DNA of 64,000 bases. Source: Candidatus Bathyarchaeota archaeon (GTDB lineage Archaea; Thermoproteota; Bathyarchaeia; Bathyarchaeales; Bathycorpusculaceae). The notes beneath the pieces were generated by a model. It was given only the letters and a program-made list of their open reading frames with translations, was not told the DNA's origin and ran no database searches. A program made the translations under genes and the position numbers. The stretch covers positions 160,001 to 224,000 of the forward strand of contig CAVRFW010000005.1 in NCBI GenBank assembly GCA_963720565.1, in the 5' to 3' direction. Positions 29,876 to 51,219 of this stretch are shown one piece after another (position 1 is the stretch's first letter; each line of letters opens with the position of its first letter).

Positions 29876-29959
29876 ATGCTAAATCGTGAAAGTCAAAAGC
29901 AGAGTCATCATCGAATGTTTTCTAGCTTCGGATACTACTTTTATTATTATTTTTGCTGA
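29876..29959 (+). CDS. Putative Phe/Tyr leader peptide (27 aa; alternative ATG at 29915 gives 14 aa)
   Basis: MLNRESQKQSHHRMFSSFGYYFYYYFC*: 5 Tyr and 4 Phe in the last 13 codons, directly upstream of the aromatic pathway operon. Confidence 0.8.
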   Translation: MLNRESQKQSHHRMFSSFGYYFYYYFC

Positions 29960-38182: not shown

Positions 38183-39265
38183 TTGACAAGCATGCTGTAT
38201 GAAATAAACGAAAAAGCTCTCAAACTTGAGAGCGAAGGAAAAAAGATAATTCGGTTGAACATAGGCGACCCTGACCTGTCAACTTCGAACGAGATAATTG
38301 AGGCTGCTTACGAAGCGATGAAGAAAGGAAAAACCAAGTATTCTTCCAGTTACGGCGAGACGAAACTAAGGGAAAAACTTGCTGAAATTCATCATGTTTC
38401 ACCTGATCAGGTTGTGATTACTCCAGGCTCGAAATGGGGCGTTTTCGCTACCATGTATCTAGCGTTGCGGGACGGCGGAAACGTCATCGTTCCCACGCCT
38501 TACTGGACAGCATACGAGTTGACAGCTAAGAGTTTAGGTGCCAAGACTAAACTGTTGAGGACCGAGTTTGATTCCCAATGGCAAATTGACTTGGAAAAGC
38601 TTGAGGATTTGATTGACGGGGAAACGCGGATGATAATTTTGAATAACCCCAACAATCCAACCAGCAAAGTCATGGCCCCCGAAATTTTGGATGGAATAGT
38701 CCAAATTGCCAACGACAAAGGTATCCCGATTCTTTCGGACGAAGTCTACGGCACCATAAGTTTTGTGAAGACTAAAAGCATTCTTGATTACGAAGGCAAC
38801 CACATTCTTTCAAACGGGTTCTCCAAGACGTTCACAATGACGGGTTGGCGACTCGGCTATATCATAGCCAGCAAAGAACTGGTCGACAAAATAACTAGAC
38901 TTAATCAAATCACAATTAGCAATGTTCCTGTCTTTATCCAAGAAGCAGGCTTGAAAGCTTTAGAGCTTCAGAAGCAAATCTCAACGAAAATCAGGGAAGA
39001 ATACCGGGAACGCGCGAAAATTGCGAGCAACATCATGTCTAAGACTGCTCTGGAATTTACAGAGCCCGAGGCTCCGTTCTATGTCTTCCCGAGAAAACGT
39101 GGTTTAGACTCAGAAAGATTCGTCTTGGACTTGTTAGATAAAGGTGTTGCAGTCGCCCCGGGTACGTCGTTTGGCGATTACAGAGAGCACTTCCGCATTT
39201 CTTTAACCGCACCGCGAGAAATGATTAAAACAGGTTTGAACAGGATCTGCGAGGCCCTGGAATGA
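38183..39265 (+). CDS. Class I/II PLP aminotransferase (probably aromatic)
   Basis: NNPNNPT, SDEVY, FSKTFTMTGWRLG; located within the aro operon. Confidence 0.9.
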   Translation: MTSMLYEINEKALKLESEGKKIIRLNIGDPDLSTSNEIIEAAYEAMKKGKTKYSSSYGETKLREKLAEIHHVSPDQVVITPGSKWGVFATMYLALRDGGNVIVPTPYWTAYELTAKSLGAKTKLLRTEFDSQWQIDLEKLEDLIDGETRMIILNNPNNPTSKVMAPEILDGIVQIANDKGIPILSDEVYGTISFVKTKSILDYEGNHILSNGFSKTFTMTGWRLGYIIASKELVDKITRLNQITISNVPVFIQEAGLKALELQKQISTKIREEYRERAKIASNIMSKTALEFTEPEAPFYVFPRKRGLDSERFVLDLLDKGVAVAPGTSFGDYREHFRISLTAPREMIKTGLNRICEALE

Positions 39266-40135
39266 AAATTGCGATTCTAGGCGCGGGGAAAATGGGTGTT
39301 TGGTTCGCCAGGTTCTTCCAAGAAGAAGGATATTCCGTGGTTTTGGCAGATAGAAACGAAAAAAAACTGGAGAGGTTGAAGGAGGAACTTGCTGTCCAAA
39401 CCGCCGGCTTTGTTGAAGCTGTTCAAAAAGCCGACTGGATTTTAATCTGCGTGTCCATGAACGCTTTTGAGAACTGTTGCCAAAACAATCGGCCCCCACA
39501 TAGTAAAGGGGCAAATTGTCATGGATATTTGCTCCGTCAAAGAAGAACCCGTTAAAATCATGCACAAACACATCGAAAAAGGCTTGGTTTTGGGGACTCA
39601 CCCTGTATTTGGTCCGGGCAGCAGCGGCGTCAAAAACAAGGCTTTCATTCTTACTCCAACAACAAGGCAAGAGGAAGAATTTGCCAAAGACTTCAAAATC
39701 TGGCTGGAAGCAAAAAAAGCACGTGTTTTCGTAGTCACTCCTCACAAGCATGACGAATTGATGTCGGTTGTTCTCGGTTTTCCACATTTCGCAGGATTAG
39801 TTGCGTGCGACACTCTGCTCGAAATGAAAGATTACCCTCAAACTAAGGATGTCGCTGGCACCACTTATCGAATGTTGTTCACTTTGGCGGAAGCGACTGC
39901 AATGGAAAACCCCGAGCTGTTTTCAAGTTTACAGTTTAGTCTTCCAGAGATGGAGAAGATAGAAAAATTGTTCATTGAAAAGGCGAACGAATGGTTAAAC
40001 CTGATAAAGCAGAAAGATTCTGGGGCAATTGCAGCCAAGATGAACGATTTGAAGTCAAAGCTTGCTAGAGCAAGTCCCAGCTACGAAAAGTCGTACGAGA
40101 CTATGTATAAGATGCTGGCGGCAGCTGAAAAATAG
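39262..40135 (+). CDS. tyrA: Prephenate dehydrogenase, frameshifted at about 39472
   Basis: GAGKMG Rossmann motif; DICSVK, HPVFGP, HDELMS after an apparent extra A. Confidence 0.9.
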
Positions 40136-40144
40136 CTGTTCAGA

Positions 40145-40999
40145 TTAAGCGTTTGGCGCCTTTGGATATGAACCCAAGATTTTGAGAAATGCCCCGTTCT
40201 TTTGAAGCGCTTTCAATGCTGCAGCACAGTTTTCTTCTGTTCTATGTCCTTCAAAATCCAAGTAGAAATTGTATTCCCACGCTTTCTGCTTCGTCGGTCT
40301 AGATTCGATTTTTGTGAGGTTTATGTTTCGCTTCGCAAATTCGCTCAAGGCTTGATATAGCGAACCCGGAGTGTGGGCAGCAGCAAAGATTATCGATGTC
40401 TTGTCTTTTCCTGTAATCGGAGAGTCTTCTTTTGACAATACAAAGAACCTAGTATGGTTTGTCGGGTTATCCTCAATTTCCCTGGATAGGATCTGCATTC
40501 CGTATATTTCAGCAGCTTTTGCACTGGCTACTGCTGCAGCGTTCCTTAGACCTTTCTCTTTTAACATTTTTACGCTGCCTGCAGTGTCGTAAGTCGGTAC
40601 AAGTTCGCTTCCTAGTCGCTCCAGAAAAATGCGGCATTGAGCCAAAGCTTGCGGGTGCGAATAGACCGTTTTTATGTCGGCTAATGTTACGCCGGGGTTT
40701 GCGATGAGGCAGTGGCTGACTCGGAGGATGATTTCTCCGCAGACTTTAAGGTCGTGTGTAAGGAAAAGGTCGTAGGTTTGATTGACGCTGCCTTCGAGGC
40801 TGTTCTCTATTGGAACTACGCCGAAGCGGGTTTCTTGTTTGCCAACGTTTTCAAAGACTTCTGTAAGATCTCGGCACGGTTTAACTTCTACCTTTTTTCC
40901 GAAAAAGGCGTAGACTGCGCTCTCGCTGAAAGCGCCTCTTTCTCCTTGGAAGGCCACTTTCACTTTTTGTTTCCCTGCTTTCGGTTTTTTATTAAGCAT
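40145..40999 (-). CDS. pheA: Prephenate dehydratase
   Basis: GAFS, PIENSLEG, SHPQALAQC, TRF, NLTKIESRP, LGSYP. Confidence 0.96.
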   Translation of the reverse strand: MLNKKPKAGKQKVKVAFQGERGAFSESAVYAFFGKKVEVKPCRDLTEVFENVGKQETRFGVVPIENSLEGSVNQTYDLFLTHDLKVCGEIILRVSHCLIANPGVTLADIKTVYSHPQALAQCRIFLERLGSELVPTYDTAGSVKMLKEKGLRNAAAVASAKAAEIYGMQILSREIEDNPTNHTRFFVLSKEDSPITGKDKTSIIFAAAHTPGSLYQALSEFAKRNINLTKIESRPTKQKAWEYNFYLDFEGHRTEENCAAALKALQKNGAFLKILGSYPKAPNA

Positions 41000-42483
41000 T
41001 TGTTTATGCCATTAATCATTGCTTCGACGCTTGCCATAACGATGTCTTCTCTAGCTGCGCGTGCTGATACTATGTGTCCTTTCTCATCTTCAACTTTTAT
41101 GACGACTTCAGCCACAGCGTTTGAGCCACCTGTTATGGCTTCAAGACGATATTCTTTGAGCCTAATTTTTTCCAGATTATTGGTGAGTTTCTGTATGGCT
41201 TTTAACACTGCGTCCACAGGTCCTACTCCAGTCTCAGCCGCAATGTACTCTTTTCCGTCTAGGAGTAGTCTGACTGATGCTGTTGGAATTACCTTGATTC
41301 CTGTTACAACAGCCAAGTCGGCTAGGTCAACTATTTTCTCTTCTGAGATTACTTCGCCCATGACGGCTGAGGTCAAAGCGAGCAGGTCGGCATCAGTAAC
41401 CATCTTGCCTTTGTCGCCCAGCTCTTTGACTCTTTGAACGATTTCTTTTAGTTGCTCTTCCGTGGGGTGTATTTCGATTTCTTCAAGCTCGGCTTTGATG
41501 CCGCGTGTTCCAGCTAGCTTTCCAGCGACGAGTTTTCTTGTGCGCCCCACCATTTCCGGTTTTATGGGTTCAAAAGTTAAGGGTTTTACTGTTACCCCTC
41601 GGGTGTGAATGCCGGACTCGTGGGCGAAGGCGTTTTCGCCGACAATCGCCTTGTTTGCTTGTACAGATATTCCGGTTAGTGTTGCAACCAGTCGCGAGGT
41701 GCTATACAGCAGACGCGAATTAACTCTAGTCTTAAGCTTGTAGATCATGTGTAGAGCCATGACTACTTCTTCCAGTGAGGCGTTTCCCGCTCTTTCGCCT
41801 AAACCGTTAATCGTAGCGTGTATCTGAGCTGCACCTGCTTCAACAGCTGCAAGAGAATTCGCAACTGCCATTCCGAAATCATCGTGACAGTGAACGCTGA
41901 TTGGAACAGTCACGACTGTTTTGAGGTCTTCAACGAGTTTTGCCATGGAGCGCGGAATCATTATGCCTACCGTGTCAGGAACATTCAATCTATCCATTCC
42001 CGCATTCTCTGCTGCTTGGCATACCTTCTTTAGAAACGCTAAGTCAGAACGCGTTGCATCCATCGGAGAGAACTCGCATGTTAATCCGTGCTTCTTCACG
42101 TATTCAATAGAGTCTACAGCTGCGGCGACAACTTGTTCAGGCGTTAGGTTAACAGCGTATTTCATTTGCACAGGCGACGTCGGGACAAACACGTGAACTG
42201 CGTCAACGTCGCACTCTATCGCAGCATCAATGTCGTTTCTGTTGGCACGAGCTAAACCGCAGATTTCGGCGTCTAAATCAGCATTTGCTATTTCCTTCAT
42301 TACTTTTTTCTCGCCTTCGGAAGATGCTGGAAAACCAGCTTCGATCGAGTCAACGCCCAACAGGCTGAGTTGGCGCGCGATCTCGAGTTTGTCGTCAAAC
42401 GTGAGTGAAGCGCCTGGAGTCTGCTCGCCGTCCCTTAGGGTTGTGTCAAAAATGCGTATGTAATCGGCGTTTTTTGATGTCAT
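40960..42483 (-). CDS. leuA: 2-isopropylmalate synthase (LeuA/CimA family)
   Basis: DTTLRDGEQTPG, HCHDDFG, GERAGN, HESGIH, regulatory domain GVGPVDA; lies within the leu operon. Confidence 0.85.
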   Translation of the reverse strand: MTSKNADYIRIFDTTLRDGEQTPGASLTFDDKLEIARQLSLLGVDSIEAGFPASSEGEKKVMKEIANADLDAEICGLARANRNDIDAAIECDVDAVHVFVPTSPVQMKYAVNLTPEQVVAAAVDSIEYVKKHGLTCEFSPMDATRSDLAFLKKVCQAAENAGMDRLNVPDTVGIMIPRSMAKLVEDLKTVVTVPISVHCHDDFGMAVANSLAAVEAGAAQIHATINGLGERAGNASLEEVVMALHMIYKLKTRVNSRLLYSTSRLVATLTGISVQANKAIVGENAFAHESGIHTRGVTVKPLTFEPIKPEMVGRTRKLVAGKLAGTRGIKAELEEIEIHPTEEQLKEIVQRVKELGDKGKMVTDADLLALTSAVMGEVISEEKIVDLADLAVVTGIKVIPTASVRLLLDGKEYIAAETGVGPVDAVLKAIQKLTNNLEKIRLKEYRLEAITGGSNAVAEVVIKVEDEKGHIVSARAAREDIVMASVEAMINGINKCLIKNRKQGNKK

Positions 42484-42501: not shown

Positions 42502-43527
42502 TTAGGTAATTGCGTCCGCGATGGCTTCTGCCATGCCTGTGGTTGTTCGGTTTCCGCCCAGGTCTGGGATTGTGTTGCCGTTTTGCAGTGTCTTAACTAC
42601 AGCGTTTTCTATGGCAGTAGCTGCTTTGATGCATTCTTGGTCTTTGTATGTTTCACCTAGCCATTCTAGCATCATTCTTGCAGCTAGTATTTCTGATAGG
42701 GGGTTTGCTGTTTGCTTGCCTGCTCTATTAGGTGCTGAACCGTGAATTGGCTCGAAGAGGGCGAATTTGTCTCCTACGTTTGCTCCTGGGGCCATGCCTA
42801 AACCGCCGACTAGCTGTGCGGCTTCGTCGGATAAGATGTCGCCAAACATGTTGCAGGTGCATAGCACGTCGAATTCTTGGGGTTCTTTTATGAGGCGCAT
42901 TGCTGCGGCGTCAACGTATAGTTCGTTGAAGGCTATGTCAGGGTATTCCTTTGCTTTTTCTCGGCACACGCTTGCGAACAAGCCATCGGTTACTCGCATA
43001 ACGTTAGCTTTGTGGATAGCTGTGACTTTTTTCTTGCCGTTTCGTAGTCTCGCGGTTTCGAAGGCTTTCTTGGCTATCCTTTCACAGTTTCCTCTAGTTA
43101 TTACTCTCATGCAAATGGTTGTGTCTTTTCCTATGGTGAACTCGTGACCCATGTAGACGTCTTCGGTGTTTTCTCTAACGAACATCATGTCTATGTCAGG
43201 TCGCGCTGCTGCAGCTGCTGGATAAGTCTTTATCGGTCTCAGGTTTGCGTAGAGATCAAACATCAGCCTCAGCTTTACGATTACGTCGGCAGCGGTTTCT
43301 CCGACTGGACCTTTCAAGCATACGTGTGAGGCTTTGATTTTTTCAACGCTGTCTTGAGGAAGTGCTACTCCTCGGCGCTGCAAACAGGCGTCTCCTGCTT
43401 CTGCCTCAATCATTCTGAGTTTCAATCCGAATTTTGATTGTGCTGATTTTAACACTTTCAGAGTGGCTTCGGTAAGCTCGGGTCCTATTCCGTCGCCTGG
43501 GATTACGGATATTTTGTATTCTGTCAT
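42502..43527 (-). CDS. leuB: 3-isopropylmalate dehydrogenase
   Basis: GDGIGPE, NLRP, RENTE, NMFGDILSD, EPIHGSAP. Confidence 0.92.
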   Translation of the reverse strand: MTEYKISVIPGDGIGPELTEATLKVLKSAQSKFGLKLRMIEAEAGDACLQRRGVALPQDSVEKIKASHVCLKGPVGETAADVIVKLRLMFDLYANLRPIKTYPAAAAARPDIDMMFVRENTEDVYMGHEFTIGKDTTICMRVITRGNCERIAKKAFETARLRNGKKKVTAIHKANVMRVTDGLFASVCREKAKEYPDIAFNELYVDAAAMRLIKEPQEFDVLCTCNMFGDILSDEAAQLVGGLGMAPGANVGDKFALFEPIHGSAPNRAGKQTANPLSEILAARMMLEWLGETYKDQECIKAATAIENAVVKTLQNGNTIPDLGGNRTTTGMAEAIADAIT

Positions 43528-44021
43528 TTCTTGTTCAACCTTTTGCGCAAGTTTTCTATTAGTCCTCCGTCCACAAGTATTTCTACTATGAAGGAAGGCA
43601 GTTTCGTAACGTGAAAACTCTGTTTCTTTGAGATGTTTTCTACTTTACCAGTCTCAAAGTCTACCTCGAGTTTGTCACCGTTATCTGTAGCTGCTGAGAT
43701 TCCTTTGCACTCGATTACGGGTAAGCCAATGTTTATGGCGTTGCGGAAGAAAATCCGCGCGAAAGACTCGGCCAAGACGCATTGAACACCAGCGTACTTT
43801 AGTGCTAGGGGCGCCTGTTCTCGGCTGCTGCCGCATCCGAAGTTTTTTCCGCCCACTACAATTACGCCCTTTCTTGCTTTGTCTGGAAATCCGGGGTCTA
43901 AGCCTTCCATTGCATGTTTCGCCAAGTCTTTGGGGTCGATTAGGACTAGGTATTTTCCTGGCAGAATCACGTCTGTGTCCACGTTGTCTCCGAATTTGAT
44001 TGCTGTTCCGGTCGCCTTCAT
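43524..44021 (-). CDS. leuD: 3-isopropylmalate dehydratase small subunit
   Basis: DNVDTDVI, NFGCGSSREQA, SFARIFFRN; ATGA overlap with leuC. Confidence 0.94.
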   Translation of the reverse strand: MKATGTAIKFGDNVDTDVILPGKYLVLIDPKDLAKHAMEGLDPGFPDKARKGVIVVGGKNFGCGSSREQAPLALKYAGVQCVLAESFARIFFRNAINIGLPVIECKGISAATDNGDKLEVDFETGKVENISKKQSFHVTKLPSFIVEILVDGGLIENLRKRLNKK

Positions 44022-45292
44022 TTTTTGTATGCCTCCAGTTCCTGTGGGTCGGTTATTCTGCCGGTTAGTGCTGAAGCTGCTACTGTTGCTGGAGAAGCCA
44101 AGTAGACATTTGCTTCGGTGCTGCCCATTCTTCCTATGAAGTTGCGGTTGGAAGTGCTTACACATGTTTCGCCTTGTGCTAGTAAGCCTATGTGTCCTCC
44201 AAGGCAGGGTCCGCATGTTGATCCGCAGACTAACGCGTCCGCGTCGGTGAAGATTTCGATCAATCCTTCTTTTAACGCTTGAGCGTATGTTTCTTTGGAA
44301 GCAGGAATCACGAGTGCTCTTACGCCGTCTTTGACTTTTTTACCTTTCAGAATTTCCGCTGCCAACCTCAGGTCTTCGATTCTCCCGTTGGTGCAGGAAC
44401 CGATGAAAGCTTGATCTACCTGGACGTTGCCTAATTCAGAAACAGGTTTCACATTGTCAACTGAGGATGGACATGCGACCTGGGAGCCTAAACCTGAGAC
44501 ATCTACGTCGATGATTTTCTCGTAGGTTGCATCAGGATCGCTTTCTAAGGATTCAAACGGCTTCAAGGTTTTCTCTGTTCTTCCTTCAAGGAACCTCTTT
44601 GTTGTTTCGTCCGGTTCTACAATGCCGTTTTTGGCGCCCATTTCAACTGTCATGTTGCACAGGGTCATTCTGCCCGCCATGCTCATCTCTTGAATTATTG
44701 GCCCGCAGAACTCGACGCTCTTGTACGTTGCACCATCTGCGCCTATCTTGCCGATTAGGTGCAGGATCAAGTCTTTGGGTGTTACGTATTTCTTGAACTC
44801 TCCTGTTGCATTTATCTTGATTGATTCTGGTACTTTTAGCCAAATTTTGCCAGTGGCAAAGACGCCTGCCGCTTCGGTTGAGCCTATGCCCGTGGCGAAG
44901 GCGCCGAAGGCGCCGTAAGTGCAGGTGTGCGAGTCAGCGCCAACGATTACTGTGCCAGGTAGGACATGCCCTTTCTCAGGCATTACCTGGTGGCAGATTC
45001 CGCCCTTGCCCACATCATAGATCTGAATGTTCTGTTCTTTGGCGAAGTGGCGCATCATCTTGTGCAGTTCCGCAGCTTTGACTGATTCAGCTGGGACCTG
45101 ATGATCCAGAACTACCACTGCTTTTTGGCTGTTCCATATTTTCTTTAAGCCTATTTTTTTGAAGGCTTCAACCGCTAAGGGTCCAGTTAAGTCGTGGACC
45201 ATTAGCATGTCTACGTTGGCGTCAACGATATCTCCAGGGCTTACACTGCTTTTTCTGGATGCGTTGGCCAAGATTTTTTCTGTTATGTTCAT
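44018..45292 (-). CDS. leuC: 3-isopropylmalate dehydratase large subunit
   Basis: DSHTCT, IGSCTNGR, CGPCLG, SNRNFIGRMG. Confidence 0.95.
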   Translation of the reverse strand: MNITEKILANASRKSSVSPGDIVDANVDMLMVHDLTGPLAVEAFKKIGLKKIWNSQKAVVVLDHQVPAESVKAAELHKMMRHFAKEQNIQIYDVGKGGICHQVMPEKGHVLPGTVIVGADSHTCTYGAFGAFATGIGSTEAAGVFATGKIWLKVPESIKINATGEFKKYVTPKDLILHLIGKIGADGATYKSVEFCGPIIQEMSMAGRMTLCNMTVEMGAKNGIVEPDETTKRFLEGRTEKTLKPFESLESDPDATYEKIIDVDVSGLGSQVACPSSVDNVKPVSELGNVQVDQAFIGSCTNGRIEDLRLAAEILKGKKVKDGVRALVIPASKETYAQALKEGLIEIFTDADALVCGSTCGPCLGGHIGLLAQGETCVSTSNRNFIGRMGSTEANVYLASPATVAASALTGRITDPQELEAYKK

Positions 45293-45912: not shown

Positions 45913-47624
45913 TAATAGTCACCTACCTGCTGGTTTAAGCCACAACCCGGAGGAACCATGGGCACTACGTTTTCTTCTGAGGAGATTGGCACGTCGATGA
46001 CTGTTGTGACCTTGCTCTTCAGTGCTTTTTCAACGGCTTTTTGAAATTCTGCGACTGAGCCTACGCGGAATCCTTGAGCTCCGTACGCTTCTGCGAGTTT
46101 GACCAAGTCTGGATATGCACCAAGTTTAACTGCCATATAGCGGCTCTTGTAGAACATGCGTTGCCACTGGGCAACCATGCCTAAGACGCCGTTGTTGAGA
46201 ACGATAACGGTAACGGGTATGTCTTCGATTACGCTACACGCGAGTTCCTGTTCGGTCATAATGAAGCTGCCGTCGCCAGCTATGTCCACAACGTGTCGGT
46301 TGGGGCAGGCTGTTTTGGCGCCGATTGCTGCTGGGAAACCGAAGCCCATGGTGCCTAAGCCGCCGCTGCTTATGAACGTACGTGGTTTTATCGCTTTGAA
46401 GTAGAGCCCAGACCACATTTGGTTTTGTCCGACTTCTGTTGTGACTATGGTATCTTCTGGTAGGAGCTTCCGCAGCGCTTGCAGTAGTGGTTTAGGTTTC
46501 AGTTCTTTTGCTTCTCCGTTTTGCAGTGGATTGAGTAGTTGACGCGCTTCTTTGACGCGGCTAACCCAGGGTGAATCAGTCTTCTTTTTAGCTTGTTGGA
46601 TTAGGCGTTCGTAGATTGCGCTTAGGGCTTTTTTTGCGTCTGCAACTATGGGTATGTCTACTTCTATGTTTTTGCCGATTTCTGCGGCGTCGATGTCGAC
46701 GTGAATTTTTTTAGCTTCGGGGCAGAATGTGTCAGTATTACCTGTGGCGCGGTCTGAGAAACGTGTTCCAACTGCAAGCATCACGTCAGCTTCCAAAAGC
46801 AGTTTGTTGGCGAGGGGATTTCCATGCATGCCGATATTGCCAATGCTGAGGGGATGGATTTCTGGAAAGCTGCCCTTTCCCATGAAGGTGGTAGCAACGG
46901 GCGCCAGTAGTAGCTCGGCTACAGTTAGAAGTTCGTCTGATGCGTTGGCAGTAATAGTTCCGCCACCCGCGAGGATTACTGGTCTTTCTGCTTCGGCGAG
47001 TAGCTCAGAGGCTTTACGTATTTGAAGCGGATGTGGGTTGCCTGGGGGTTTGTAACCTCGGATGTCGATTTTATCCGAGAACTCGATTTGACCTACTTCA
47101 GCCTGAATGTTTTTTGGGAAGTCGATGAGGACAGGTCCCGGTCTGCCGGTGGTAGCGATGTAGAATGCAGAGTTAACTGTTAGCGGTATCTCGGATGGTG
47201 TGCGTATCTGATAGTTGTACTTTGTTATTGGGGTGGTGATGCCTATGATGTCGGCTTCCTGAAAAGCGTCTCTGCCGATCATGTATGTTGTATTGACGCC
47301 GCTGGATGGGACTTGCCCCGTTAACGCGATGACTGGCGAACTGTCCATATAGGCGTTTGCTATGCCAGTCACTAGGTTTGTTGCACCTGGACCGCTTGTG
47401 GCGAAGCAGACGCCGGCTCTACCGCTTGCGCGTGCATAGCCGTCAGCTGCGTGTGCAGCTCCCTGTTCGTGTCTGGCTAGAATGTGTCTAATACGCGGAT
47501 GATTGCATAGGGCATCGTATACGGGTAGGATTGCTCCCCCTAAGATGCCGAATACTTCTTTGACGCCTTGTCGTTCAAGTGAATCTAGTAGCGCATTTGC
47601 GCCTGTCATTTTTGTTGTTGTCAT
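45912..47624 (-). CDS. ilvB: Acetolactate synthase large subunit
   Basis: RHEQGAAHAADGYAR, TSGPGATN, AFQEAD, SGGLGTMG, GDGSF, LGMVAQWQ. Confidence 0.96.
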   Translation of the reverse strand: MTTTKMTGANALLDSLERQGVKEVFGILGGAILPVYDALCNHPRIRHILARHEQGAAHAADGYARASGRAGVCFATSGPGATNLVTGIANAYMDSSPVIALTGQVPSSGVNTTYMIGRDAFQEADIIGITTPITKYNYQIRTPSEIPLTVNSAFYIATTGRPGPVLIDFPKNIQAEVGQIEFSDKIDIRGYKPPGNPHPLQIRKASELLAEAERPVILAGGGTITANASDELLTVAELLLAPVATTFMGKGSFPEIHPLSIGNIGMHGNPLANKLLLEADVMLAVGTRFSDRATGNTDTFCPEAKKIHVDIDAAEIGKNIEVDIPIVADAKKALSAIYERLIQQAKKKTDSPWVSRVKEARQLLNPLQNGEAKELKPKPLLQALRKLLPEDTIVTTEVGQNQMWSGLYFKAIKPRTFISSGGLGTMGFGFPAAIGAKTACPNRHVVDIAGDGSFIMTEQELACSVIEDIPVTVIVLNNGVLGMVAQWQRMFYKSRYMAVKLGAYPDLVKLAEAYGAQGFRVGSVAEFQKAVEKALKSKVTTVIDVPISSEENVVPMVPPGCGLNQQVGDY

Positions 47625-47718
47625 TCTTTTTGCTCCTTAGGTCAAGAAAGTGACGGTGTGCATTTCGTGGAACTTTATTGTTCGAGAAGTTGAATTTAAT
47701 GGTTTCTCGGAGGCAGTT

Positions 47719-47790
47719 TTAGAAGGTTCCCTGGGTGATTTGGAGAATGAGTACCCGACGATCCCAACTATTGAGGTGGCGATCCCTCAT
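47719..47790 (-). CDS. Putative Ile/Leu/Val leader peptide (23 aa)
   Basis: GGAGG-AAAATTGAA-ATG; MRDRHLNSWDRRVLILQITQGTF*; stop lies 94 nt upstream of ilvB. Confidence 0.7.
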   Translation of the reverse strand: MRDRHLNSWDRRVLILQITQGTF

Positions 47791-47846
47791 TTCAATTTTC
47801 CTCCGCGAAACTCCACGTACCGTGAAAAACCTAACATTCCACTCCA

Positions 47847-47862
47847 GATAAAAACATTACGG
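47847..47862 (-). promoter_or_regulatory. BRE/TATA promoter of the ilv leader and operon
   Basis: Minus strand CCGTAATG-TTTTTATC, 56 nt upstream of the leader ATG. Confidence 0.62.
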
Positions 47863-47964
47863 TGCTCCAATCTACGTCAAGGCAGTTGGCAAAACGCTGT
47901 AGTTTGAGAGCGCCTATTTTTGAGCTTTCAGCCTGTTGCATCTGTTCTTTTTGCTGTTCTGTTG

Positions 47965-49593
47965 TTAATCCATTGGTGTAGGTGAATACCGCGATAGGTA
48001 ACCTTTTGTTACTTTCTGTTTTTTCGGCTTCCAGGCTGCCATTCGCTTCTCGATTTCCTTCTCCGATAGATCCACACTCAGCTTTCGATTTGAGATGTCA
48101 ACAGTGATCTTGTCGCCGTTTTCTATGACCGCGATGGGGCCGCCCATAGCTGCTTCTGGTGTGACATGACCGACACAGGGACCTCTTGTGGCCCCTGAAA
48201 ACCTGCCGTCCGTTATCAAGGCAACAGACTCGCTTAGTCCCATACCGGCAATCGTGGCTGTGGGAACCAGCATCTCAGGCATTCCTGGTCCGCCTTTTGG
48301 GCCTTCGTAGCGAATTACCAGTACGTCGCCGGGTTTAATTTTGCGGTCTATCATTGCGGCCACAGCATCGTTCTCCGAGTCAAATACTCTTGCTGGGCCA
48401 GCATGTTTGAGCATCTTCGGCGAAACAGCCACTGTCTTTACGACAGCGCCCTTTGGCGCCAAATTTCCGGTCAATATGGCGATTCCGCCTCCAGCGTGAA
48501 CGGGGTTAGCCAACGGGTGAATCACATCGGCATTTAGAACCTTGGCGTTTTTGATGTTCTCGCCAACCGTTTTGGTAGTGACCGTGAGTGCGTCAAAGTG
48601 CAGGAATGGTGTGAGCTCTTTCTCCAAGGCTGGCAAGCCTCCGGCCATATCCAGATCTTCCATGTCGAACGGTCCGCTGGGAACCATGTTGCAGAGGTGC
48701 GGAACTCGCCTGCTCATCTCGTCAAAAACGCTCAAAGGCAATGTGATTCCTGCTTCTCGAGCAATAGCTGAAAGGTGTAGCACGCTGTTCGTGGAGCCTC
48801 CCAGTGCCATGTCCATCGCTATGGCGTTCTCGAAGGCTTCTTTTGTGAGGATTTGAGAAGGCTTAACGTTGCTGGAAACAAGTCCCACTATCTTCTCGCC
48901 AGTTTCTTTGGCTATCCGAAGTTTTGCCGCACTCGCAGCCAAGGCTGTTGCACAGTAAGGCAAAGACATCCCTAATGCCTCTGTCAGGCAGGCCATTGTA
49001 TTGGCCGTGAATAATCCGTTGCATGAACCGCAGCCTGGGCATGCAACATCTTCCAAACGCGTTAATTCTTCACTTGTTATTTTGTTGGCGAAGACTCTGC
49101 CCATTCCCTCAAAAACGTTGTTCACGCCGACTTTCTCGCCATCCAGTTTCCCGGATGCCATTGCGCCTCCTGTAATGGATATCGCTGGAATATCGAGTCG
49201 CGCTGCAGCCATGAGCATGCCGGGTGTTACTTTGTCGCAGTTGGAAATCAAAACAACGCCGTCCAGTCGGTGAGCTTGAACCATGATTTCGACGGAGTCA
49301 GCTATTAGTTCTCTGGAAGGAAGCGAATAGCGCATTCCTTCATGTCCCATGGCTATGCCGTCGCAAACGGCGATTGTGTTGAATTCAAATGATGTGCCGC
49401 CTGCATTGGATATTCCTTCTTTTACGGCTTCGGCTATGGTTCTTAGGTGGATATGTCCTGGAACGATTGTTGTGTAGCTGTTCGCTATGCCTATGAATGG
49501 TTTTGCTATTTCTTTGTTTGTTAGTCCTAGTGCTTTTAGGAGTGCTCGGTGGGGTGCTCTTGCCATTCCTTGTTTTATTTCGTCGCTTCTCAT
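47965..49593 (-). CDS. ilvD: Dihydroxy-acid dehydratase
   Basis: [47 protein letters not shown]. Confidence 0.96.
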
Positions 49594-49647: not shown

Positions 49648-51219
49648 TTGGAAGTGAACATCGTAAGTGATGAAAAATGGGGTATTGCTTTATCTAATCG
49701 CTTCCCTGAGAAGATAAGAATTTTTGACACCACCCTAAGAGATGGGGAACAGACCCCTGGAGTATCTTTAACACCTGAAAATAAACTGCGGATAGCGCAG
49801 CGTCTAGACGAGCTTGGTGTGGATGTTATCGAGGCTGGTTTTGCAGCTGTTTCTGATGGTGAGATGGAAGGAGTAGCGCTGATTGCCAGGCAGGGTTTGA
49901 AGGCGGAGATTTGTAGTGCTGCAAGAGGCGTGAAAGGCGACATTGATGCCGTGGTCAGGAGTGGCGCTGATAGTGTCCATTTGATTATACCTACTTCTGA
50001 TCTTCATATTGAGTGCAAGCTAAAGAAGACGCGGGATCAAGTACTGCAGATTACTGAAGACTGCGTAAGGTATGCTAAAGACCAAGGGTTGATCGTGGAG
50101 CTTTCAGCTGAAGACGCTACAAGGTCTGAGAGGGATTTTCTGAAGAGTGTCTTTAGAACAGGAATTGCTGCTGGAGCTGACCGAGTAGTCGCGTGCGATA
50201 CTGTCGGCGTTTTGACGCCTGAAAAATCATATGCGCTTTTCGCTGACTTGCGAAAGTCGCTTAAGGTTCCCGTGGTAAGCGTTCACTGTCATAACGATTT
50301 CGGTATGGCAGTGGCGAACTCGATCGCTGCTATAAGGGGCGGTGCGAACCAGTTTCACGCTACGATTAACGGTTTAGGCGAAAGGGCTGGAAACGCCTCT
50401 TTGGAAGAGATTGTGATCGGGCTGAAGTCGTTATACAAGCTTGATCTTAACGTAAAGACAGACTTGCTTTACAGCACATCACAGCTTGTGTCGCGGCTAA
50501 CTGGGGTTTACCTGCAACCTAACAAGGCGATAGTGGGCGAAAACGCTTTCACCCATGAGTCTGGGATTCACACGCAAGGTTTGTTGGCTAATCCTTTGAC
50601 TTACGAGTCTATTTCGCCAGAATTAGTTGGTGGTACAAGACGAATTTCAGCGGGAAAACACTCTGGAACGCATGGAATACGTGATGCACTCGAGAAGTTT
50701 GGTTTGAATCCGACAGATAAACAGTTTAAAGAGATCTTCCTCAGAGTGAAAAGCGTGGGAGACAAAGGCAAAACAGTTATGGATGCAGATGTGCTGGCGA
50801 TTGCAGAAAGCGTTATGGGCTTAAGCAAGGAAAAACCGATACAGCTGCAGGAGCTCACAGTCGTCGCTGGAGACAAAGTCACGTCCACAGCTTCAGTGCG
50901 ACTTAAGCTTAATGAGAAGGAAGTTTGGGGCGCAGCTATAGGGGTGGGTCCGGTAGACGCTGCCATAAACGCTGTGAAAAAAGCCATCCAAGAAGTGCAG
51001 CCGATTCATTTGGAGCAGTACAACGTCAAGGCGATTACAGGGGGAACTGACGCCATGGTTGAAGTTGTGGTGCGCATGAGGAAAGGCGGCAGAACAGCGA
51101 CTGCGATGGGTGTTCGTGAGGACATTGTGATGGCAAGCATGGATGCAGTGCTCAGCGCCATGAACGTGTTATCCACAGACTATAACGGCGTAAACAACAA
51201 ACCAGCAAAACAGCGTTAA
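49648..51219 (+). CDS. Second LeuA/CimA-family enzyme, probably (R)-citramalate synthase
   Basis: DTTLRDGEQTPG, HCHNDFG, HESGIH; divergent from ilvD; substrate cannot be fixed from motifs alone. Confidence 0.8.
   Translation: MEVNIVSDEKWGIALSNRFPEKIRIFDTTLRDGEQTPGVSLTPENKLRIAQRLDELGVDVIEAGFAAVSDGEMEGVALIARQGLKAEICSAARGVKGDIDAVVRSGADSVHLIIPTSDLHIECKLKKTRDQVLQITEDCVRYAKDQGLIVELSAEDATRSERDFLKSVFRTGIAAGADRVVACDTVGVLTPEKSYALFADLRKSLKVPVVSVHCHNDFGMAVANSIAAIRGGANQFHATINGLGERAGNASLEEIVIGLKSLYKLDLNVKTDLLYSTSQLVSRLTGVYLQPNKAIVGENAFTHESGIHTQGLLANPLTYESISPELVGGTRRISAGKHSGTHGIRDALEKFGLNPTDKQFKEIFLRVKSVGDKGKTVMDADVLAIAESVMGLSKEKPIQLQELTVVAGDKVTSTASVRLKLNEKEVWGAAIGVGPVDAAINAVKKAIQEVQPIHLEQYNVKAITGGTDAMVEVVVRMRKGGRTATAMGVREDIVMASMDAVLSAMNVLSTDYNGVNNKPAKQR

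Follow-up and report, generated by a model that had tools for sequence, protein, structure and literature searches.

The leader that precedes ilvB in the window, by which we mean the whole 64,000-nucleotide stretch analysed, is best read as an amino-acid-sensing +1 frameshift switch that would turn on ilvB, a reading to which we assign a probability of roughly three in four. Its anatomy is established at the level of sequence comparison: a short uORF, a set spacing between SD-like stretches and sensing codons, a stop-free +1 frame, and sister cassettes at other genes. The original prediction proposed that the leader senses branched-chain amino acids and controls ilvB, and that it does so by alternative RNA pairing; the sensing and control most likely stand, and the pairing mechanism is not supported. 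Absent from that reading were the elements now found to be conserved, namely an SD-like GAGG at a fixed distance before single Leu, Val or Ile codons and the stop-free +1 frame. The elements of the leader in the window are listed below.

47846..47864, minus strand: BRE/TATA-like promoter, CACCGTAA ... TTTTTATCT, seen in the sequence and recurring at equal distance in relatives
47800..47804, minus strand: SD of the uORF, GGAGG, 9 nt 5' of the ATG (47790) and complementary to the host 16S 3' end
47719..47790, minus strand: uORF of 23 codons in frame 0, MRDRHLNSWDRRVLILQITQGTF and stop, with ATG at 47790 and TAA at 47721-47719
47773..47788, minus strand: putative cassette 1 (Leu), GAGGGAT, CGC, P-site CAC, sensing CTC (L6)
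47752..47766, minus strand: putative cassette 2 (Val), TGGGAT, CGT, P-site CGG, sensing GTA (V13)
47743..47757, minus strand: candidate cassette 3 (Leu), CGGGTA, CTC, P-site ATT, sensing CTC (L16)
47637..47774, minus strand: +1 frame, open for 45 codons between cassette 1 and the TAA at 47639-47637, which overlaps the ilvB SD
47709..47714, minus strand: GCCTCC, after the uORF stop, predicted to pair with the uORF's own SD (probability 0.81)
47709-47704 and 47688-47683, minus strand: letters of the CGAGAA/TTCTCG stem
47633..47638, minus strand: ilvB SD, AAGGAG, overlapped by the +1 stop codon
45912..47624, minus strand: ilvB, acetolactate synthase large subunit (TIGR00118, over cut-off), first gene of ilvB-ilvH-leuC-leuD-leuB-leuA

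The description of a GGAGG 9 nt before an ATG, followed by MRDRHLNSWDRRVLILQITQGTF and a stop, is borne out in the sequence, and the letters of GCCTCC, of CGAGAA/TTCTCG and of the GTCA/TGAC before the ilvB SD are present as claimed. A promoter had also been placed upstream, and the BRE/TATA-like site at 47864-47846, which recurs in relatives, answers to it; with the usual archaeal promoter spacing the transcript would start at about 47821. The duplex between the host 16S tail and the internal SD-like GAGGGAUCG of cassette 1 is calculated at -11.5 kcal/mol, and the corresponding pairing of cassette 2 is weaker, at -7.4 kcal/mol. Cassette 3 is the weakest of the three; its RVLIL/WVLIL tail occurs in many relatives, and NTT-C is the slip context of the hisG cassettes described below. 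If I15 matters, it would do so as a candidate slippery P-site codon, V13 and L16 being the candidate sensing codons. The +1 frame has no SD-led start of its own, is closed on its 5' side by a TGA within ATGAGG, and ends 12 nt 5' of the ilvB ATG. NCBIfam models identify ilvB, ilvH and leuC, a leuB-like gene falls just below cut-off, and putative leuD, leuB and leuA follow in the ORF layout. Low-depth Logan contigs of relatives, from two runs of one study, span the leader into ilvB (X1, 47486-47799; X2, 47581-47741), although ends, strand and level cannot be read from them. Two other genes of the window show frame irregularities: leuD (43524-44216, minus strand) appears to change frame near its 3' end, and a prephenate dehydrogenase-like gene (39262-40135, plus strand) is split into two overlapping frames; assembly error or frameshifting may lie behind either.

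In the proposed mechanism, a ribosome supplied with plentiful amino acid would read frame 0, stop about 100 nt before ilvB and leave, after which the post-stop CCUCC may close the uORF SD; pairing of GCCTCC with that SD would limit re-loading of ribosomes, and such stretches complementary to the SD are present in only part of the leader family. When Leu- or Val-tRNA is scarce, the ribosome would pause, its 16S anti-SD would pair with the internal SD, and it would slip by +1, translate the spacer and terminate on the ilvB SD or start. The output could be reinitiation at ilvB after the +1 stop, or it could be ribosome cover that shields the spacer RNA from termination by aCPSF1 (FttA). These two are inseparable here, with reinitiation perhaps slightly the likelier.

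A search of 61 related genomes yielded 27 full-length ilvB loci after three weak paralogs were dropped. An SD-led uORF lies 113-218 nt 5' of ilvB in 25 of them, the window's own locus included, and this conserved start bears out the earlier claim that the uORF before ilvB is real. In the other two loci ilvB follows directly behind a cimA-like gene, and the leader sits before that gene instead. An exact pattern search over GTDB returned 43 matches, 41 of them with Bathyarchaeia in the title. All but one, 42 in number, stand before ilvB, and the exception, L068, is a chance match. Across the class, ilvB was found in 263 of 401 genomes, and 100 upstream regions were taken from the 150 places listed. 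The 127 ilvB-selected loci comprise 94 with this type of leader, 21 with a classical I/L/V run, 8 with ilvB behind a cimA-like gene, 1 at a contig end and 3 others; leader type was grouped by family, and the uORF was taken as the one with the strongest SD, with four picks corrected by hand. Adding the pattern hits and removing duplicates gave 117 leaders, while counts described as ilvB-selected omit the pattern-found rows, which are circular for the cassette. Start codons are GTG in 71, ATG in 45 and TTG in 1 of the 117, stops are TAA in 49, TAG in 37 and TGA in 31, and an SD-like motif stands 4-11 nt before the uORF start in 113. The start codons of ilvB itself come from an automatic call, which could be wrong by a few codons. 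One contig titled Sulfotelmatobacter (L071) carries a leader and an ilvB 81% identical to the window's, and is probably a misbinned Bathyarchaeia contig. At five loci of several genera (L023, L106 and L108-L110), a small conserved ORF ending in FWYETRPEGP lies just 5' of the ilvB leader.

The cluster of branched-chain residues on which the original prediction leaned, VLILQI, proves to be lineage-specific: kin read PTDRFI, SADCFI, VQFF or FVQATL, or end after RDRFL. What recurs is a cassette of five codons that ends in a single Leu, Val or Ile codon and has an xGG codon at -4. All 106 AGG codons in 82 distinct ilvB-selected uORFs are followed by L/V/I four codons on, against 0-14% at other offsets from AGG (about 100 codons) and a background of 24% in the long ORFs of the host genome (2959 AGG codons); a G directly precedes AGG in 104 of the 106. 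The sensing codon itself may be CTC, CTT, CTA, TTA, GTA, GTT, ATT or ATC, and since it varies within L/V/I, selection acts on the amino-acid class. Val cassettes read YGG-GTA in 61 of 62 cases. With the L/V/I codon in the A site, the SD-like stretch ends three bases 5' of the P-site codon; this is the spacing of prfB, and AGG stands at -4 in 106 of 106. The A-site codons are CTY/CTA/TTA, GTA/GTT and ATY, and not the stop UGA as in prfB. The initiating SD lies a short way 5' of the first internal SD. Many different residues are found directly before the sensing codon, and the residue at -4 may be Arg, Gly or Trp, always from an xGG codon, which speaks against a conserved peptide acting as an arrest sequence. 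Selection at the nucleotide level, rather than on the peptide, is favoured by this pattern.

P-site and sensing codons are matched in the way that re-pairing of anticodon base 34 (wobble) after a one-base slip would require: NNY stands before CTN in 101 of 102 Leu cassettes and NGG before GTA in 25 of 26 Val cassettes, although the Leu covariation is confounded with a GAGG/YCUC hairpin, as the Val and His covariation is not. The wobble pair is kept in 126 of 133 AGG cassettes scored overall, and in 0 of 5 Ile cassettes. Among 198 cassettes, re-pairing at +1 involves two or three bases in 118, one base in 78 and none in 2, so that at least two of three bases re-pair in 60% of cassettes, compared with 38% for other codons. 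The commonest Leu slip sites, CAC-C (window cassette 1) and TAC-C, re-pair at one of three bases. Many P-site codons re-pair poorly, and 6-7 nt separate the internal SD from the P site, as in normal initiation; both would suit entry into the +1 frame by a hop or restart, in which the ribosome drops off at the hungry codon while its small subunit stays bound to the internal SD and then restarts at a near-cognate codon in the +1 frame. We think this unlikely, given that the +1 triplets at that distance are ACC, GGG, TCC, TTC, TTA and CCC, none of them a start codon, that P-site codons covary with the base that opens the sensing codon, and that at hisG the ribosome would have to move by one base twice in a row. 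Either route would give the same sensing and output.

In 80 of 83 ilvB-selected leaders the +1 frame, followed from its first sensing codon, meets no stop until it is 25 nt or less from the ilvB start, against 5 of 83 for the -1 frame by the same criterion. Including the pattern-found leaders gives 111 of 115; the two of the 117 left out, in which the ilvB motif was not located, have an open +1 frame by eye. The leaders are kin rather than independent; with one leader per genus or family, the +1 frame is open in 35 of 36 groups and the -1 frame in 1 of 36. Over 2356 spacer codons per frame, stops number 171 in frame 0, 2 in the +1 frame and 157 in the -1 frame, compared with 119 in dinucleotide shuffles. 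The +1 stop falls at -4 relative to the ilvB start in 28 of 115 leaders, at -8 in 24, and between -25 and +12 in 103. The exceptions are two leaders whose +1 stop comes early (L144 and L160) and two more with stops at -31 and -32. In L039 and L091 ilvB itself lies in the leader's +1 frame with no stop between, a direct fusion.

Substitutions in the +1 peptide are spread over the codon positions as 110/101/94, against 57/23/131 for ilvB (24 pairs), and the +1 peptide is, judging by this spread, not under protein-level selection. In 91 of 115 leaders the +1 frame contains no ATG, GTG or TTG before a point 30 nt beyond the first sensing codon, and in 106 of 115 the frame is closed on its 5' side by a TGA in the start region. 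Of 17 aligned internal spacer indels, 13 are not multiples of three (in alignments of low identity), and the distance from uORF to ilvB is not constant modulo 3. Shifts of -1 and -2 were rejected, the frame not being open and re-pairing being no better or worse than background, as was transcriptional slippage, there being no homopolymer at most sites. A scan of the whole host genome for the architecture had no discriminating power, with 20 hits in +1 against 41 in the -1 control, and missed the hisG and cimA-like cassettes; a looser pattern run on 201 genomes gave mostly chance hits, and the clean cassettes that could be traced to a gene were ilvB leaders.

The earlier mechanism turned on alternative RNA pairing. 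The stems named in it have pairing probabilities of about 0.27 (CGAGAA/TTCTCG), 0.00 (GGAACC/GTTCC) and 0.02 (GTCA/TGAC) and are not conserved. GCCTCC had been noted as complementary to SD sequences; its CCUCC is predicted to pair with the uORF's own SD (0.81, against 0.00 for the ilvB SD). Nor does alternative pairing appear to switch the ilvB SD in the way envisaged: in an equilibrium-folding test with ribosome masks on 111 leaders, a stalled ribosome raised the accessibility of that SD in 10 and lowered it in 26, so the stall-dependent release of a downstream SD that marks LEU elements was not seen. The whole window leader folds no better than shuffles (z -0.61), and occlusion of the ilvB SD is no higher than in shuffled spacers (0.35 vs 0.34, 83 leaders). 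An Rfam scan of 47500-48100 gave no match beyond a fragment at E=3.4, and no curated T-box or riboswitch family; a bacterial-type scan found no terminator-like hairpin with a U-run on the sense strand, and no conserved downstream helix or spacer structure was found beyond close kin. One hairpin, GAGG-N8-CCUC, does recur: it is the sole consensus structure in two alignments and has a probability of 0.98 in the window leader.

These results bear on classical stall attenuation, in which a ribosome stalled on I/L/V codons would free the ilvB SD or remove a terminator and the open +1 frame would be incidental. Like the classical attenuators, the leader has an SD-led uORF before the operon; a conserved control-codon run and a terminator/antiterminator pair were not found. 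In favour of attenuation are some long-range pairings (uORF SD with the post-stop CCUCC, and the recurrent GAGG-N8-CCUC hairpin) and the 21 of 127 ilvB loci, from other families of the class, whose leaders have an I/L/V run with a hairpin after it. With no conserved ilvB SD switch, no terminator-like hairpin and a spacer unconserved beyond close kin, and with the depletion of stops in one frame and the start-less cimA-like genes left unexplained, we hold stall attenuation to be quite improbable for the window leader.

The start-less genes belong to a set of sister cassettes that extend the frameshift reading to other operons. The window has two paralogs of the isopropylmalate/citramalate synthase family (TIGR02090), at 40960-42483 and 49648-51219; we provisionally name the latter cimA-like because the other paralog lies in the leu operon. 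An Ile cassette stands one base off its coding frame.

49677..49697, plus strand: Ile cassette ATG GGG TAT TGC TTT ATC TAA (MGYCFI and stop), whose +1 frame is the cimA-like coding frame (to 51219)

Among 33 cimA-like loci (the best 30 of 72 matches and three further loci), 32 have a start-led cassette ending in TTT-ATY that stands one base off the coding frame. Thirteen of the 33 have no in-frame ATG, GTG or TTG before the conserved motif and would therefore need the shift; 28 lack an in-frame ATG and 27 an SD-led start. In the window, an in-frame TTG (49648) and GTG (49654) follow the start of a TATA-like box by only about 20-26 nt. Transcription is expected to begin at these codons or beyond them, so this gene too would probably need the shift. 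The sole locus without a cassette start (L251) reads ATT there and has an in-frame ATG upstream, possibly a loss of frameshift control. The functional protein would be a trans-frame fusion at the cimA-like gene and, apart from the in-frame L039, not at ilvB. When cimA-like and ilvB sit in the same operon, their leader combines one cassette for Val with one for Ile. The ilvB leader of L013 resembles the leftover 5' end of a cimA-like gene, with an MGYRFI cassette and a +1 frame reading SNRFPHKIKIFDTILKDGEQTP, which suggests that coupled leaders may have arisen from fused cassettes.

Two His cassettes in series precede hisG in 15 of 30 loci, the first in frame 0 and the next, with a stop after it, in the +1 frame. 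In every one of these 15 (once through Ns) the +2 frame runs to between -21 and +11 of the hisG start. The other 15 have no cassette directly upstream, 11 of them lying inside an operon and 4 being without a cassette. Locus L204 (G000:C9:204344-204420, plus strand) is one such His leader, with two cassettes in successive frames and a +2 frame that reaches the hisG start. No cassette was seen directly before ilvC, argC or asd, and trpE was not found with PF00425 in the host genome, which is 89% complete. In the window, an aro leader at 29876-29959 (plus strand) ends in MFSSFGYYFYYYFC and a stop, with a GCCCAGAACC/GGTTTCTGGGC hairpin after it. A stop closes its +1 frame some 30 nt short of the next gene, and its +2 frame is open until a stop roughly 9 nt ahead of that gene's ATG (30019). 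It may work by slipping twice or by a stall-and-hairpin mechanism.

The cassettes would thus be wired in three ways. In ilvB leaders, those lying in one frame would form an OR gate for Leu, Val and Ile; at hisG, two in successive frames would form an AND gate; at the cimA-like gene, one is fused straight into the coding frame, as in prfB. In the window, cassette 3 of the ilvB leader ends in Leu, and Ile would be read at the cimA-like gene. This match of the A-site codon to the pathway in three operons (Leu/Val/Ile, Ile and His) also bears on a frameshift that is real and yet set at one ratio, only lowering basal expression without response to amino-acid supply. Set-ratio frameshifting is a known class (PMC8211752, in part), but a fixed ratio needs no such match, and we regard it as very unlikely here. 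Least credible is a GAGG-N8-CCTC palindrome in DNA, or hairpin in RNA, that binds an amino-acid-binding regulator and has the ORF features as by-products: AGG, never AGA, stands at -4 and the hairpin is well predicted, but Val, Ile and His cassettes keep GAGG/GGGG and the spacing without the CCTC arm, starts vary between ATG and GTG, and stops vary across all three types.

The frameshift switch has weak points of its own: CAC-C and TAC-C re-pair poorly, the initiating SD is close by, and ilvB has a good SD that is left free. According to PMC5009743 (in part), an SD must stand 3 nt ahead of the shift site to stimulate +1 shifting, such shifts are favoured by slow A-site codons, and RF2 sites avoid competing SDs just 5' of the internal SD. 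A good SD belongs to ilvB itself in 80 of 83 leaders and, since it is free, the model leaves the absence of de novo ilvB initiation unexplained. Coupling in H. volcanii needs overlap or less than about 20 nt, and reinitiation fell to 40-60% at 13-14 nt, according to portions of PMC10666635; the window's +1 stop, 12 nt before the ATG, lies at about such a distance, which counts against the proposal. As to the second output, competition between ribosomes and aCPSF1 for Spt4/5 has been put forward as a speculation in a review (PMC8116511, in part), and aCPSF1 binds U-tracts (PMC8716108, in part). U4 runs occur in 63 of 83 spacers, with none in the window spacer; 104 were observed, compared with 43 in base shuffles and 75 in dinucleotide shuffles. 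The host genome has a gene of TIGR03675, which we take to be the aCPSF1 family.

A further 40 ilvB loci, 37 from other classes of the phylum and 3 from another Bathyarchaeia family, include about 11 with similar cassettes by eye, although an automatic scan of the same 40 gave 14 hits in +1 against 22 in the -1 control, and the cassettes seen by eye are leads only. Cassette-like leaders were noted at L301-L304, L309, L313, L314, L318, L321, L322, L326 and L328, several of which share ACC CTC CAA GT. L313 and L314 come from single-contig complete genomes of family f54, and the organisms may be cultured. Other families of Bathyarchaeia have a second design before ilvB (L134, L143, L147-L149, L152-L154, L156-L159, L161-L168 and L172), in which I/L/V-codon runs close the uORFs; these mostly end 53-68 nt 5' of ilvB and often have a GC-rich hairpin after them. 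This design has no consistent open shifted frame and resembles the classical attenuators.

We consider it reasonably probable that the cassette is a general, modular archaeal sensor in which an SD-stimulated +1 shift occurs at one hungry codon, a codon change retunes it, and parallel, series or fused wiring sets its logic; it would extend beyond Bathyarchaeia, probably to cultured Thermoproteota, and would account for some enzyme genes without an in-frame start. Such a sensor would be neither attenuation nor a T-box, and would give a concrete, testable answer to how archaea match biosynthesis to charged-tRNA supply without either. It would imply that in archaea, as in bacteria, the ribosome scans mRNA with its anti-SD during elongation, and it predicts mis-annotated N-termini, as at the 13 of 33 cimA-like genes. 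At about 18 nt and retunable by one codon, the cassette could serve as a compact sensor part. A literature search covering titles and the starts of abstracts, with few subscription journals, found no description of such an amino-acid-sensing frameshift leader; if true, this would be, as far as that search reaches, the first regulatory +1 frameshift in cellular archaeal genes.

The attenuators are among the closest known systems. In E. coli, ilvL, ivbL and leuL are leader-peptide attenuators of ilv and leu operons. Like the actinobacterial ilvB attenuators and the LEU elements (PMC1262725, in part), the archaeal leader has a short SD-led uORF that would read charged-tRNA supply; those systems use control-codon runs, a terminator/antiterminator, or Leu codons paired with a downstream SD, and the archaeal leader is without these. 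In its response it is like hungry-codon frameshifting, as studied by Gallant and as in the incidental shift in pheL, where limitation causes shifts at slow A-site codons (PMC5009743, in part). The sections of that 2016 review drawn on here know of no productive use of such shifting, and the archaeal leader, if the reading is true, would be the first. The 2021 review PMC8211752, again in part, gives fucA1 as the only reported archaeal -1 frameshift; fucA1 indicates that archaeal ribosomes can shift frame, by -1, whereas the leader cassette would be a conserved, pathway-matched +1 sensor.

On the output side, the layout is like that of termination-reinitiation coupling, with the +1 stop on the ilvB start or almost adjoining it and -4 as its commonest position; unlike ordinary coupling, the upstream partner is a conditional, non-functional frame and not a gene (PMC10666635, in part). 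The nearest precedent for the output is the ketolide-induced shift in ermCL, in which a uORF frameshift likewise sends ribosomes into the spacer and turns on the downstream gene (PMC5009743, in part). The ermCL shift is triggered by a drug and unfolds structure over the RBS, while the archaeal leader would rely on a cognate codon and an SD, no conserved occluding structure having been found. For the shift itself the closest relative is bacterial prfB, described in part in the same review, with an internal SD 3 nt before the P site, a slow A-site sensor, a short frame-0 ORF, and a +1 shift that turns expression on. The archaeal leader differs from prfB in that its A-site codon is a sense codon for the pathway end product and not a UGA sensed through a release factor, its P-site codon is variable and not CUU_U, and it is not autoregulatory. 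Moreover, several cassettes are combined, the shifted frame at ilvB and hisG is a disposable ORF that runs no further than the following gene's start, and the setting is archaeal. The elementary slip is thus known from prfB, and what would be new is its use as a family of amino-acid sensors.
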